From Anaerovoracaceae bacterium (lineage in GTDB: Bacteria > Bacillota > Clostridia > Peptostreptococcales > Anaerovoracaceae), in contig JAWRJF010000096.1 of assembly GCA_040307645.1 (NCBI GenBank), forward strand, positions 8,054-72,053: a stretch of DNA of 64,000 nucleotides, read 5' to 3'. Position 1 is the stretch's first letter; every line of letters starts with the position of its first letter. Positions 31,836-35,905 of the stretch are shown piece after piece. The translations under genes and the position numbers were made by a program. The notes beneath the pieces are model-generated. The model saw only the letters and a program-made list of their open reading frames with translations. It had not been told where the DNA came from and ran no database searches.

Positions 31836-32867
31836 TTAAGCATATAACTCAGAGAATAAGTTTCTTAACTTATCATTTTCTCTTAAGCACTGTAATGTGA
31901 TTTCTGCATGGCCTTTAGTGTATCCGTTACCGATAACCATATCGATATCTTTACCAACACCTTCAGCACCAAGAGCTGCTTTAGTGAAGCTTGTAGCCAT
32001 TGAGAAGAAGTATACAATACCTTCATCTTTACAGCAAAGGATTGATGACATTTCTGTGTTTTCGATGTTTACTACGTTAATTACTAGGTCTGCTAATTTT
32101 CCGTCTGTAGCTTCCATGATTTTATTGTATAGGCCAACTGCATCTGTTGCGTCTGCAATCATGTATTCGTCAGCAACGTCAACGCTCTTAGCTCTGTTAA
32201 TTGATCTTTCGAAACCGTCTACGCAGATTACTTTACCAGTAACTCCAGCTCTCTTCTTTGCTTCATATAGGCAAAGGATACCAGCTTTTCCGCCGCCACC
32301 GATTACAACTACAGTGTCGCCAGGCTTTACTAATTTAGCAGTCTGAGCAGGAGCTCCTGCAACGTCTAATGCTGATAATGCAAGACCTTCTGGAATATCA
32401 TCTGGAAGAACTGCATAAAGTCCACTCTGGAATAAGATAGCCTGTCCTTTTACGTCAACCTGGTCAATTTCTGGTCTAACGTCAGTGATTTCTTCTACCT
32501 TTAGTGGAGTAAGTGATAAAGATACTAATGTAGCAACCTTATCTCCAACTTTTAATTCACCTTCAAAGTTAGGTCCGATTTCTTTAACAGTACCGATTAA
32601 CATTCCGCCGGATCCTGTCCATGGGTTTTTATGTTTACCTGTTTTTTCGATAATGTCAAGAATAGTAGCTTTGATTTTTTCAACATCTCCGTCTGCTCTT
32701 CTTGAGATTTCAGTAAATGATGCTGAGTCAATATTTAAAGTCTGAACATCAATAAGAACCTCATTATCGTAAATTTCCATAGTGTTGTCAATAACATCTG
32801 CTGGTTGTGGTAATACTCCCTTTGGAGAAATTACTCTGTGTGTACCATAAGGGCATCCTTTTTTCAT
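31836..32867 (-). CDS. kdd: L-erythro-3,5-diaminohexanoate dehydrogenase
   Basis: 343 aa. Rossmann loop VVVIGGGGKAGI. First gene of the kamA/kamDE operon. AGGAGG RBS. Confidence 0.85.
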   Translation of the reverse strand: MKKGCPYGTHRVISPKGVLPQPADVIDNTMEIYDNEVLIDVQTLNIDSASFTEISRRADGDVEKIKATILDIIEKTGKHKNPWTGSGGMLIGTVKEIGPNFEGELKVGDKVATLVSLSLTPLKVEEITDVRPEIDQVDVKGQAILFQSGLYAVLPDDIPEGLALSALDVAGAPAQTAKLVKPGDTVVVIGGGGKAGILCLYEAKKRAGVTGKVICVDGFERSINRAKSVDVADEYMIADATDAVGLYNKIMEATDGKLADLVINVVNIENTEMSSILCCKDEGIVYFFSMATSFTKAALGAEGVGKDIDMVIGNGYTKGHAEITLQCLRENDKLRNLFSELYA

Positions 32868-33011
32868 AATTACATCCTCCTAAAAATCATTTAAATATAT
32901 GTAAACTTATGCTTTAGCATAACTCTAACCAAATACATTATATAGCAAATAGTTTTTTGTGTCCACTCTCAAGACGGTCTCCGAACCCAATCACCGAAAA
33001 AATATTTAGGC

Positions 33012-33059
33012 GAACCGTTTTGTGTTCGAACGGTAAATTGCTCGAACCAGTTATGGTTC
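33012..33059. promoter_or_regulatory. Two GAAC-N8-GTTC palindromes inside the kdd leader
   Basis: GAACCGTTTTGTGTTC at 33012-33027 and GAACCAGTTATGGTTC at 33044-33059. The second sits within the perfect 9-bp-arm palindrome CTCGAACCA/TGGTTCGAG. Confidence 0.55.
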
Positions 33060-33139
33060 GAGCATTAAATAGAGGTTTATTACGCTTTTATGCGCGAAAA
33101 GATTTTATGATATTTTTTCATTATCATGTATCTTAACAA

Positions 33140-33155
33140 TGCAAAGGCCGTGCCA
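33140..33155 (-). promoter_or_regulatory. Sigma-54 (-24/-12) promoter of the kdd-kamA...kamE operon
   Basis: The minus strand reads TGGCAC-GGCCT-TTGCA, a perfect match to the TGGCAC-N5-TTGCA consensus. Confidence 0.8.
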
Positions 33156-33207
33156 ACTTGTCTGTCTACATTTTCAGCCTTTTGCAGGCCTTCCCCTCTT
33201 ATGCCTC

Positions 33208-33254
33208 GAACCGTTTTGTGTTCATGTCAGATTTTGGCGAACTGTTTTGTGTTC
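33208..33254. promoter_or_regulatory. Two GAAC-N8-GTTC palindromes upstream of the sigma-54 promoter (probable activator binding sites)
   Basis: GAACCGTTTTGTGTTC at 33208-33223 and GAACTGTTTTGTGTTC at 33239-33254. They are spaced 31 bp apart and centred roughly 90 and 120 bp upstream of the expected start site. Confidence 0.6.
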
Positions 33255-33261
33255 AAAACTA

Positions 33262-35334
33262 TTAAAGTTGATATTTTTTCTTTTTTCTTACTAGTTGAGT
33301 CTGACTAATTCCTACGGCCTTTGCGGCTTTTCTTGTGCTTCCATATTTTTCGCAAGCATACTTTAATATATTTTTTTCGAAGTTTTCCACCATGCTTTCA
33401 AGATTTATGTTTTGTTCCTCATCACCAGGATCCATAGAGTCAGAGCTGGTAGTCTCGAATATCTCTGCGTGCAATTCCTTCATAACGTCAAATAATGTTA
33501 TGTTTTCTCCTTTTGCAGCAATTATTAATCTTTGGACTATATTTTCAAGCTCTCGTATATTACCCGGCCAGTCACATTGTTTCAAGTAGTCGATAGCATC
33601 TTCATCAATTCCTCTTTTTATGGAGAATTTTTCACTGTAAATCTTAAGGAAGTGTCGAACAAGTGCCGGTATGTCGCCTGTTCTCTCACTTAAGCTAGGC
33701 ACTCTTATTCTCACCACGTTTAGTCTGTAATACAAGTCTCGTCTAAAGCTTCCCTCTTCAATAATATCTTCTAAATCCCTGTTGGTTGCAGAAATTATTC
33801 TTACATTTGTTTTTACAGGTTTTACTCCCCCAACTCTAAAAAATTCACCGTCTTGAATAACTCTTAACAGTTTAGCCTGCATGTCCAGGGAAAGTTCCCC
33901 TATTTCGTCTAGAAATATTACACCATTATCGGCAAGCTCAAAGTATCCTTTTTTACCATTAGGGCTAGCACCTGTAAAGGCTCCTTTCTCATATCCAAAA
34001 AACTCCGATTCCAGTAAAGATGGTGAGATAGACGCGCAGTTTACTTTTATAAACGGAGCGACTTTCCTGCTACTGTTTTTCTGAATTATATTAGCAACCT
34101 TTTCTTTTCCGACTCCCGTTTCCCCCGTAATCAGGACATTGCAGTCATATTTTGATACCGACAGCATTTCATCAAGAACTGCCGCCATAGCTCGGCTTTC
34201 ACAAACAAAGTCTTCCAACATGGTCTGCCTCTGCCCCGACGCCTCAATCAGCCTAGTCTCACGGTTAATAGGATAGGCAGGGTCGTCATATATGGTAAGG
34301 TTAGAAGATGTTGCCCCTTTTATATAAGGGTCAAGTTCCCTTACCAAATCAATGTCGAATTCGTCGTAAGCTTCAAGATACCCGTCTGCGCATCTTATAT
34401 CCAGCTGCCTCGAAATTGATTCCGTTATGTAAAGCGCAATGTTATAGTTGTTTATAAGATTTGCAAAGACAACGGTACCTCCTGACTTAGTAGCCAGGAT
34501 ATTTATAGTTTCCGCCCCCGGAATATCAGCACAGTTAACAGAAACATCAAAAAGAGAATCCGCATTAAGTTTTTCAATACAATCCATAGGTTTTAGAATA
34601 TCCAAATAGTGTATTTCGCTAAAGGTAGAAGATAATAATTCGTCTATTGTTTTTCCTTTTACAACCAGATCGGTTTTTTTATCTAACAAGCAAACGATTT
34701 CCGCTCCATGTTTAGCTACTTTTCGTATTGCATATCCAAATAGAAGGTTACTCATCAAGTTGTTTCCAACAATCAAAAACTTCTTTTTACCAACGGCAAT
34801 ATTACTTATTCTATAAAGCGTCCCCGACTCATTTAAGGTAAACAACAGCAAGTCGGTAGGAACTCCCTGGGGTTTTCTTACCAGAGGTACCTCGGAATAT
34901 AAAACCGCATAACCCTCCACTTCTATTTGGCCAAAAGCCTTATCAATAGATGTTATTTTCGATATATATATTGGAACAGATGCCAAAGATGCGTTACAAA
35001 CTACTTCTTCTCCAGGCTTTAGATTTTTTTTATTATCAAATTTACTGCCCACTTCGTCAACAACGCCGTAAAACAATCCTCCTGTATCCGTTACAGGGTT
35101 ATGTAATTTCCCCCTCTTTATTACAATATCTATTATCTTTTGTTTTATTTTTTCTTCATTATTATTTACTTCCAGACAAATTTGTTTAAAGCTTGTTCCT
35201 TCCAAGTGTATCCTTTTTATATTTACTTTTATTTCTTCAGGTGTTATCACTCTGCTATTATCTAAGCGCCACGCAGATGTCGGTAACACATGCTGAGGCT
35301 CTAATACTCTATTAGTACCATAATTGTGGGTCAT
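33262..35334 (-). CDS. Sigma-54-dependent transcriptional activator with a Kdd-like N-terminal domain
   Basis: 690 aa. AAA+ sigma-54 interaction module (GETGVGKE, FFGYEKGAFTGA, IISATNRDL) and a C-terminal Fis-type HTH (GSTRKAAKAVGISQTQLVRK). The N-terminal ~345 aa are colinear with the adjacent Kdd. Confidence 0.9.
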   Translation of the reverse strand: MTHNYGTNRVLEPQHVLPTSAWRLDNSRVITPEEIKVNIKRIHLEGTSFKQICLEVNNNEEKIKQKIIDIVIKRGKLHNPVTDTGGLFYGVVDEVGSKFDNKKNLKPGEEVVCNASLASVPIYISKITSIDKAFGQIEVEGYAVLYSEVPLVRKPQGVPTDLLLFTLNESGTLYRISNIAVGKKKFLIVGNNLMSNLLFGYAIRKVAKHGAEIVCLLDKKTDLVVKGKTIDELLSSTFSEIHYLDILKPMDCIEKLNADSLFDVSVNCADIPGAETINILATKSGGTVVFANLINNYNIALYITESISRQLDIRCADGYLEAYDEFDIDLVRELDPYIKGATSSNLTIYDDPAYPINRETRLIEASGQRQTMLEDFVCESRAMAAVLDEMLSVSKYDCNVLITGETGVGKEKVANIIQKNSSRKVAPFIKVNCASISPSLLESEFFGYEKGAFTGASPNGKKGYFELADNGVIFLDEIGELSLDMQAKLLRVIQDGEFFRVGGVKPVKTNVRIISATNRDLEDIIEEGSFRRDLYYRLNVVRIRVPSLSERTGDIPALVRHFLKIYSEKFSIKRGIDEDAIDYLKQCDWPGNIRELENIVQRLIIAAKGENITLFDVMKELHAEIFETTSSDSMDPGDEEQNINLESMVENFEKNILKYACEKYGSTRKAAKAVGISQTQLVRKKKKYQL

Positions 35335-35358
35335 TTTCTGTTCGCTCCTTTTTTATCT

Positions 35359-35374
35359 GAACATAATTCGGTTC
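35359..35374. promoter_or_regulatory. GAAC-N8-GTTC palindrome upstream of the kal sigma-54 promoter
   Basis: GAACATAATTCGGTTC, ending 30 nt upstream of the -24 element. Confidence 0.5.
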
Positions 35375-35404
35375 ACATTTTTCGTCATTTCAATGATAAC
35401 CCAT

Positions 35405-35420
35405 TGGCACATATTTTGCA
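35405..35420 (+). promoter_or_regulatory. Sigma-54 (-24/-12) promoter of kal
   Basis: TGGCAC-ATATT-TTGCA, a perfect consensus match, about 90 nt upstream of the kal ATG. Confidence 0.8.
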
Positions 35421-35512
35421 ATATTAATTATAGGTGTTTACAATCATAAAGAATACTTATATAATAATTGTTGACACAAGTTTATAATAATTAATTTAAG
35501 GAGATTTATAAA

Positions 35513-35905
35513 ATGGAAGAAAAAGTAACATCATTAATCAGAGTTAGAATGTCAGCTAAAGACGCTCATTACGGTGGAGAATTAGTAGATGGAGCTCATA
35601 TGGTACATCTTTTCGGAGACGTAGCTACTGAACTATTAATTAAATTAGACGGAGACGAAGGTTTATTCTGTGCTTATGACAACGTAGAATTCTTAGCTCC
35701 TACTTATGCTGGAGACTACATTGAAGCTTACGGAGAAATTACAAAGATCGGTAATTCTTCAAGAAAAATGAAGTTTGAAGCAAGAAAAGTTATCGTTTCA
35801 AGAAAAGACATCAACGCATCAGCTGCTGATTTCTTAGAAGAACCAATTGTAGTTGCTAGAGCAACTGGTACTTGCGTAACTCCAAAAGAATCAAAGAGAA
35901 AATAG
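35513..35905 (+). CDS. kal: 3-aminobutyryl-CoA ammonia-lyase (hotdog fold)
   Basis: 130 aa. Size and composition fit the small hotdog-fold Kal of the lysine fermentation pathway. It is co-localised with kdd/kamADE and has its own sigma-54 promoter. Confidence 0.7.

Follow-up and report, generated by a model that had tools for sequence, protein, structure and literature searches.

Gut and oral Anaerovoracaceae ferment lysine to butyrate and acetate, and no paper in the literature searched describes the transcriptional control of this pathway in these organisms. Here, we analyzed a stretch of 64,000 nucleotides from an Anaerovoracaceae bacterium (contig JAWRJF010000096.1, positions 8,054 to 72,053; hereafter the window), in which a gene for a putative enhancer-binding protein (EBP) lies between the lysine-fermentation genes kdd and kal. 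Two perfect sigma-54 (-24/-12) promoters and five copies of a GAAC-N8-GTTC palindrome flank this gene, and one pair of palindromes stands downstream of the promoter facing kdd, within what looks like a long transcribed leader. This raises the question of what these sites control and how two of them came to lie there. With a probability of roughly 0.7, we propose that three control modules share one 16-bp operator (GAACCG-N4-CGGTTC), most likely bound by the adjacent Kdd-like EBP, that the kdd operon is read from tandem promoters under EBP control, and that the two modules before kdd were brought side by side by the deletion of a tandem paralog, kdd2.

Gene identities were taken from NCBIfam profile matches on the window proteins, with domains also assigned by Pfam. 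On the minus strand, these matches name kdd, kamA, kamB, kamC, kamD, kamE and a TIGR00366 transporter; kal is on the plus strand. The kdd-kamABCDE operon begins with kdd (31836..32867, minus strand; NF052381, 264 bits), while kal, for 3-aminobutyryl-CoA ammonia lyase (35513..35905, plus strand; NF052388, 190 bits), is monocistronic. The EBP gene (33262..35334, minus strand) encodes a 690-aa product with a Kdd-like N-terminal region, a sigma-54 AAA+ domain with GAFTGA, and a C-terminal HTH_50. Its residues 6-171 match the Kdd model NF052381 with 142 bits, the central domain is PF00158 (224 bits) and HTH_50 is PF18024. In a check of the AAA+ and Walker motifs, the GAFTGA loop was intact and both GETGVGKE and IFLDEIGE were present. 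A Pfam search of the EBP found no PAS domain. For the AAA+ and helix-turn-helix (HTH) parts the top-scoring model is PrdR (NF041552), which matches only residues 372-689; an assignment as PrdR was rejected, the whole-protein score of 336 bits being below the curated cut-off of 795. The genome assembly (2.16 Mb, 35% GC) encodes rpoN (TIGR02395, 464 bits versus a cut-off of 277; contig C48), on whose presence the original prediction of sigma-54 control depended, and the gene was also found in all ten relatives checked.

That prediction, made from the window's letters, had reported two perfect copies of TGGCAC-N5-TTGCA and five palindromes, three of them nearly identical, and all of this held. 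The promoter element occurs exactly twice in the window (33140-33155 on the minus strand and 35405-35420 on the plus strand; chance expectation 0.02), and the palindrome exactly five times (at 33012, 33044, 33208, 33239 and 35359; chance expectation 0.39), a number reached in 0 of 100 shuffles. The string CGAACYGTTTTGTGTTC is common to three of the copies. Both promoters, P1 before kdd and that of kal, agree with the sigma-54 consensus TGGCAC-N5-TTGCW at 16 of 16 positions, with GG and GC 10 nt apart. Read in the direction of the EBP gene, the operator motif is tGAAC(C/A)(G/c)A(A/T)(A/T)(T/A)CGGTTC(G/a), i.e. a GAACCG-N4-CGGTTC dyad.

The extent of the regulon was addressed by the genome-wide search for GAAC-N8-GTTC that had been proposed along with the prediction. 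Altogether, 25 such palindromes occur in the 2.16 Mb. With an operator weight matrix built from 155 sites in related loci, the top five hits of the genome are the five sites of the window (25.5, 24.4, 22.2, 18.0 and 16.8), followed by a next score of 14.9. Hence, no other site scores near the five, and the motif is confined to the lysine locus. In four relatives, sites with AT-rich spacers likewise cluster only in the lysine locus, and other matches to the pattern are as frequent as those to a control pattern. The search thus returned this locus as the only candidate target, and a distant kce, which had been considered as a further member, is not supported: it lies on another contig and has neither a site nor a promoter within two mismatches nearby. 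The only BKACE/kce gene of the genome is found at C79:10390-11220, between rapZ-like and whiA-like housekeeping genes. The predicted regulon therefore has kdd-kamABCDE and kal inside its boundary and kce outside.

For the geometry of the sites, +1 was set 26 nt from the T of TGGCAC. P1 (TGGCACGGCCTTTGCA, 33140..33155, minus strand) has its predicted start at ~33129, which leaves a leader of 262 nt to the kdd ATG. Pair 1 consists of a distal palindrome (33239..33254) centred at -118 and a proximal one (33208..33223) centred at -86 of P1, so the upstream-activating position and 31-bp spacing ascribed to it before are borne out; relatives have orthologous pairs upstream of P1 with a spacing of 30-32 bp. 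P1 itself has orthologues downstream of the EBP gene in relatives, and it ranks second genome-wide on a sigma-54 matrix, a rank that is partly circular because the matrix includes both real promoters and their orthologues. Pair 2 has a spacing of 32 bp and is centred at +78 and +110 of P1. As described before, it thus lies inside the apparent leader; its reading as a leader feature did not survive the comparison with relatives described below.

This comparison used one genome per species and yielded 97 loci with a relative of the EBP, 80 of which were kept. Essentially all of these belong to Anaerovoracaceae / Family XIII and include Emergencia, Ihubacter, Senimuribacter, Aminicella, Hornefia and [Eubacterium] infirmum. 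The order kal <- EBP -> kdd(kdd) ... kamA is conserved, and across the 80 loci the palindromes and -24/-12 promoters hold orthologous positions in both intergenic regions; elements, conservation and spacing were all observed directly. Two tandem kdd genes follow the EBP gene in 25 relatives, among them a member of the window's own genus (locus L007, genome G001). There the order is EBP, site pair, sigma-54 promoter P1, kdd2, site pair, a further promoter P2, kdd1 and kamA. In these relatives, P1 drives kdd2, and the second pair stands behind that gene.

In the window, a relic of the kdd2 3' end was directly observed at 33069..33125 (minus strand), comprising the last ~44 nt of the gene, its stop codon and 11 nt downstream, with a 2-nt deletion and substitutions. 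Aligned with the kdd2 3' end and flank of L081, window positions 33125-33069 are identical at 44 of 54 aligned positions (81%), with the 2-nt deletion as the one gap. Local alignment was used together with shuffles, since global alignment with cheap gap extension had given scattered blocks and was replaced; for each of L006, L081 and L007, 0 of 300 shuffles reached the score. From the relic to the kdd ATG, a multiple alignment showed the window to be collinear with the relatives' spacer between kdd2 and kdd1. The alignment of the relic with the kdd2 3' end points to a deletion of ~1 kb that removed kdd2, beginning at about +5 to +15 of the P1 transcript and ending 44 nt short of the stop codon. 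Pair 2 would thus lie downstream of P1 because the tandem paralog between them was deleted, a loss that would have placed the second module ~80-110 nt downstream of P1 and created an apparent 260-nt leader holding two sites. The deletion occurred within the genus, where L007 still has kdd2. An independent loss of kdd2 is found in an uncultured Senimuribacter (L012, 6394-6670); it has other end points and took pair 1 and P1 as well, leaving only pair 2 and a sigma-A module before kdd.

If pair 2 did not evolve as part of the P1 leader, which promoter does it serve? Its distal palindrome (33040..33063, core 33044-33059) is a dyad of 9-11 bp, GCTCGAACC-N6-GGTTCGAGC, and its proximal palindrome (33012..33027) is the site with the top motif score of the genome, 25.5. 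They end 78 and 46 nt, respectively, upstream of the -35 box of a sigma-A-type promoter, P2 (TGGACA-N17-TATAAT, 32937..32965, minus strand; predicted start ~32930), which agrees with the consensus at 11 of 12 positions and shares the top rank among sigma-70-type matches of the 3-kb region. The form T[AG]GACA-N17-TATAAT is kept throughout the 22 aligned sequences, and it was found in 28 loci including the window. Across these 28 loci, the distance from the proximal palindrome to the -35 box is 46 nt in 19, 47 nt in seven and 48 nt in two, and that of the distal one is 78-79 nt. Since the window's 46 and 78 nt match this standard, pair 2 appears to be the usual upstream pair of the P2 module, with its two sites centred near -90 and -122 of P2.

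The position of P2 has also been occupied by the other promoter class. In the deep-branching loci L064 and L068, a perfect sigma-54 promoter stands there with a pair at -86/-118, and L007 has a sigma-54 element with one mismatch overlapping the sigma-A spacer. These cases indicate that one promoter class has replaced the other at this position in the course of evolution, with no loss of the upstream sites. A short way past the P2 -10 box, at ~+8 to +23 of its transcript, lies a further palindrome, TTATGC-N4-GCATAA (32907..32922), which is conserved across the Emergencia-like clade and forms a hairpin in the RNA fold. It might act in the mRNA, as a 5' hairpin, or as the operator of another regulator.

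A link between the EBP and the sigma-54 promoters is provided by regulators that have lost the sigma-54 contact loop. GAFTGA is destroyed or deleted in 14 of 81 EBPs (loci L030, L035, L041-L043, L051, L054, L056, L059-L061, L063, L073 and L076), with Walker A kept, and on the EBP tree these losses represent at least five independent events. Among cultivable relatives with the modules, Emergencia timonensis SN18 and Ihubacter have two kdd copies and GAFTGA, and Aminicella lysinilytica DSM 28287 lacks GAFTGA. At kal or behind the EBP gene, 63 of the 67 loci with G[AS]FTGA have a sigma-54 promoter versus 0 of the 14 without it (Fisher p = 1.7e-12, uncorrected for phylogeny), and three of the four GAFTGA-positive exceptions have promoters with one mismatch. 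This co-occurrence was observed directly. Loss of rpoN was rejected as the cause of the missing promoters: the ten relatives with rpoN include five with GAFTGA-less regulators, and the loss of GAFTGA explains the absence instead. As the sigma-54 promoters track GAFTGA, the comparison supports a role of the EBP as their activator. GAFTGA-less lineages keep GAAC-N8-GTTC in the kal/EBP region, while kal and kdd carry only sigma-A-type promoters, and five of them also keep the palindrome 46-48 nt from the sigma-A-type kdd promoter. This retention of palindromes and spacing supports the view that the same operator can work with sigma-A promoters, too. Altogether, the central proposal of the original prediction, that the palindromes and the two -24/-12 promoters form one compact local regulon tied to the Kdd-like EBP, is well supported by orthology in ~80 species and by the tracking of promoters with GAFTGA.

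The divergent region between the EBP gene and kal holds a single shared palindrome (35359..35374). Its centre lies at -64 relative to the sigma-54 promoter of kal (TGGCACATATTTTGCA, 35405..35420, plus strand; predicted start ~35431), which is orthologous in 49 loci. The closeness of site and promoter was described correctly before, but it is not unusual: the centre is at exactly -64 in 42 of these 49 loci, and one locus (L074) has a full second kal site at -96. The same palindrome lies 24-26 nt before the EBP ATG, at ~+12 to +27 of the transcript expected from a predicted sigma-A promoter of the EBP gene (TTGCAA-N17-TATCAT, 35393..35421, minus strand; predicted start ~35386), whose -35 box is the kal -12 element read on the opposite strand. 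The 30 nt between the kal site and promoter hold TTATCATTGAAA (in EBP direction), which is 90-100% conserved and includes the TTATCAT -10 box. The position of the palindrome inside the predicted EBP 5' leader suggests autoregulation of the EBP, and this second role fits the retention of both TTGCAA and the palindrome in lineages where the -24 GG of the kal promoter is gone.

Some further elements were found in this region. A second, sigma-A-type kal promoter (TTTACA-N17-TATAAT, 35437..35465, plus strand; predicted start ~35472) matches 11 of 12 positions, and similar elements occur in relatives, including those without the sigma-54 promoter. A half-site, GAACAGAAAATGACCC, lies at 35328-35343, 31 bp from the kal/EBP palindrome and thus at the spacing found within pairs; it overlaps with the interval from the ribosome-binding site of the EBP gene to its ATG, and CGAAC is conserved there in relatives. 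A 16-mer identical to TGGCACATATTTTGCA occurs at C14:55-70, at the start of that contig and before an amidinotransferase / arginine-deiminase-like gene. It lacks a palindrome and was rejected as a second copy of the kal promoter; it is rather an unrelated sigma-54 promoter, presumably of another EBP. On the other side of the EBP gene, between its stop codon and P1, a hairpin AACCCAYTGGAAACAGTGGGTT with a T-run, resembling a terminator for the EBP gene, is conserved in L003-L011, L015, L017 and L077. In many relatives, it stands between the site pair and P1. The window is without it, so that transcription of the EBP gene may run on into the kdd operon.

Based on these comparisons, we propose the following arrangement. 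Module A would consist of pair 1 and P1, module B of pair 2, a T-rich tract and P2 directly before kdd-kamABCDE, and module C of the single palindrome between the divergent kal and EBP genes, which probably serves both the activation of kal and the autoregulation of the EBP. In the ancestor of the genus, P1 would have driven kdd2, with module B behind it. In the window, the operon would now be read from both promoters, P1 being sigma-54-dependent and inducible through the EBP and P2 sigma-A-dependent. Bound at about -90/-122, the EBP would help P2 by a contact that does not involve sigma-54, like the one on which its GAFTGA-less orthologues have to rely. We tentatively extend this to a dual competence, a possibility we would sooner bet against than on: one GAFTGA-bearing EBP would use the same operator to serve sigma-54 promoters by ATP-driven remodelling and the sigma-A promoter P2 by sigma-54-independent contact. 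If true, this would explain how GAFTGA and the sigma-54 promoters could be dropped at least five times with operator, spacing and pathway control kept.

Several points weigh against this proposal as a whole. Binding by the EBP, the positions of the starts, the inducer, and whether regulation of P2 and of the EBP gene is positive or negative are all things that we infer. Sigma-70-like matches are common in this 35% GC DNA (17 found versus 9.9 expected), and it is thus conservation, not the match by itself, that argues for P2. To our knowledge, there is little precedent for an activator with intact GAFTGA working a sigma-A promoter from -90/-122. Furthermore, the surviving kdd is not simply the first copy. 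In the Kdd tree, the window protein stands at the base of the first-copy clade, while its N-terminus and upstream region are of the second-copy type, and residues diagnostic for the first (F) and second (S) copy alternate along it (SFFSSSSSFFFFSxSSF, where x is neither). We therefore rejected the simple view that kdd1 was kept; the mosaic suggests a history more complex than the loss of kdd2 and retention of kdd1, with gene conversion before the loss as a possible cause. Finally, pair 2 could serve P1 instead, or be a remnant.

Of these two, service to P1, where pair 2 would act as an enhancer from downstream, loop to pair 1 or form a roadblock, with P2 constitutive and independent of the EBP, is doubtful yet deserves most attention. 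Enhancer sites of NtrC-type activators act from either side and at a distance, and in L064 and L068 no palindrome lies upstream of P1, the nearest sites being a pair 1.1 kb downstream. Several two-kdd relatives also have degenerate sites upstream of P1 and a perfect downstream proximal site. However, the distance from the sites to the P2 -35 box hardly varies in 28 loci, and it persists in the five lineages without GAFTGA or a sigma-54 promoter and in L012, which has no P1.

We regard it as unlikely that pair 2, and possibly P1, are non-functional leftovers of the recent deletion. The deletion is indeed young enough to have occurred within the genus, and L012 shows that a similar loss can remove P1. 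However, P1 and both pair 2 sites have remained perfect next to a kdd2 relic that is down to 81% identity and carries an indel, and the module of pair 2 and P2 is conserved family-wide.

Equally improbable is a role of the pair 2 palindromes mainly as RNA hairpins in the P1 transcript, acting as attenuator, terminator or stabiliser, although a minor part played by the RNA is conceivable in the window. Compared with shuffles, the leader from P1 to kdd does fold more stably (z = -3.9) and forms an 11-bp hairpin at 33040-33063, and a T-run follows the equivalent hairpin in L007, L077, L011 and L019-L023, as in a kdd2 terminator. In the window, however, this hairpin has no U-tract (its tail is AAUUUACCGUU) and the terminator scan made no call, and a terminator at the extended hairpin was rejected on these grounds. 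Similarly, a riboswitch or known leader RNA was rejected, as 32700-35700 gave no Rfam match at E <= 1. The stem of the proximal site is only 4-6 bp, and conservation is seen in the GAAC/GTTC half-sites and leaves the spacer free, as in a protein site rather than in a stem maintained by compensatory changes.

It is very improbable that some regulator other than the adjacent EBP binds the palindromes. Their occurrence next to sigma-A promoters would be compatible with such a protein. However, the motif is found only around the EBP gene in five genomes and is kept in all lineages that keep the EBP, including in the EBP's own 5' leader. In addition, a 16-bp dyad fits a dimeric HTH protein, and no other regulator gene is conserved in the locus.

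Hardly any credence is left for pair 2 as the upstream sites of a weak second sigma-54 promoter, TTGGTTAGAGTTATGCT, which the original prediction had placed at 32911-32933 and which actually lies at 32916-32932 (minus strand): it has GG-N10-GC spacing 90-135 bp downstream of pair 2, but scores -4.5 bits versus 25.9 and 27.2 for the two real promoters (rank ~983, with ~980 of 6,922 genomic GG-N10-GC sites scoring as well, a low rank that the circularity of the matrix does not affect), its GG is unique to the window genome and absent in all 21 aligned relatives, and its GC belongs to the conserved TTATGC-N4-GCATAA. The sigma-54 elements before the kamA-adjacent kdd of L064, L068 and L007 would favour such a promoter in principle, but they lie ~30 nt further upstream, overlapping the P2 spacer, where the window has lost the GG (CAAAAAACTATTTGCT).

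EBP-controlled tandem promoters with a shared operator thus remain our preferred explanation, and the promoters and sites appear to mark a previously undescribed, fairly ordinary switch for lysine fermentation. A full-text literature search found no paper linking sigma-54 to kdd, kamD, lysine 5,6-aminomutase or lysine fermentation. What is new are the operator motif, the promoters and the regulon boundary proposed for this pathway, together with the joint loss of GAFTGA and sigma-54 promoters as a natural experiment tying the regulator to sigma-54. The locus also illustrates how the loss of a gene can make sites appear, misleadingly, to belong to a leader. Tandem sigma-70-type and sigma-54 promoters on one operon recall enteric glnAp1/glnAp2, which share activator sites; there, the sigma-70 promoter is the upstream one and is repressed by overlapping NtrC sites. 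Here, in contrast, the sigma-54 promoter is upstream, the sites lie between the promoters and the arrangement probably arose from a gene deletion.

Among regulators of related genes, KamR of Bacillus thuringiensis HD73 is described as a PAS-domain EBP adjoining kamA that activates a -24/-12 promoter (Zhang et al. 2014 via PMC4428206). Both systems have an EBP beside a lysine 2,3-aminomutase operon and a -24/-12 promoter, and the B. thuringiensis promoter region is, by the same account, also read by sigma-K, which amounts to control by two sigma factors (PMC4428206). However, the sensor of KamR is given as PAS (PMC4428206), whereas that of the window EBP is a Kdd paralogue; KamR serves a sporulation-linked kam locus, and the predicted target here is the full lysine-to-butyrate set (kdd, kamABCDE and kal). 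Operator motif and geometry are, as far as known, unrelated. With no PAS domain and an N-terminus that matches the Kdd model, the window EBP was not assigned to the KamR type, and the resemblance is functional rather than one of demonstrated orthology. A survey of EBPs in Clostridiales (Nie et al. 2019, PMC6615313) defined 39 groups, and lysine, kdd and kam figure in none of them. Like PrdR, OrdR, LeuR and others in that survey, the window EBP appears to be a one-component regulator beside one or two fermentation or Stickland operons with multiple dyad upstream sites (PMC6615313). It differs from them in the position of the sites, which are mostly 100-250 bp upstream in the survey versus -64 and -86/-118 here, in the motif, where many have TGT-N10-12-ACA instead of GAAC-N8-GTTC, and in the sensor, as the listed domains include no enzyme-like kind comparable to the Kdd-like region (PMC6615313).

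The closest parallel to the GAFTGA-less orthologues is found in TyrR, VpsR (PMC6158489) and Rhodobacter NtrC, members of the NtrC family that are without the sigma-54 contact loop and regulate sigma-70-type promoters. Similarly, the targets of the 14 GAFTGA-less regulators have sigma-A-type promoters together with the same operator. In contrast to those proteins, both states occur here within one orthologous family, with at least five independent switches, and the window EBP has GAFTGA intact, with one sigma-A-type module among its three. The remaining interest of the locus therefore lies in an operator that seems to serve both sigma-54 and sigma-A promoters and in a family that has switched repeatedly between them. 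Orthologous activators that change between sigma-54 and sigma-A with unchanged operator geometry would offer a convenient system for questions of EBP rewiring.

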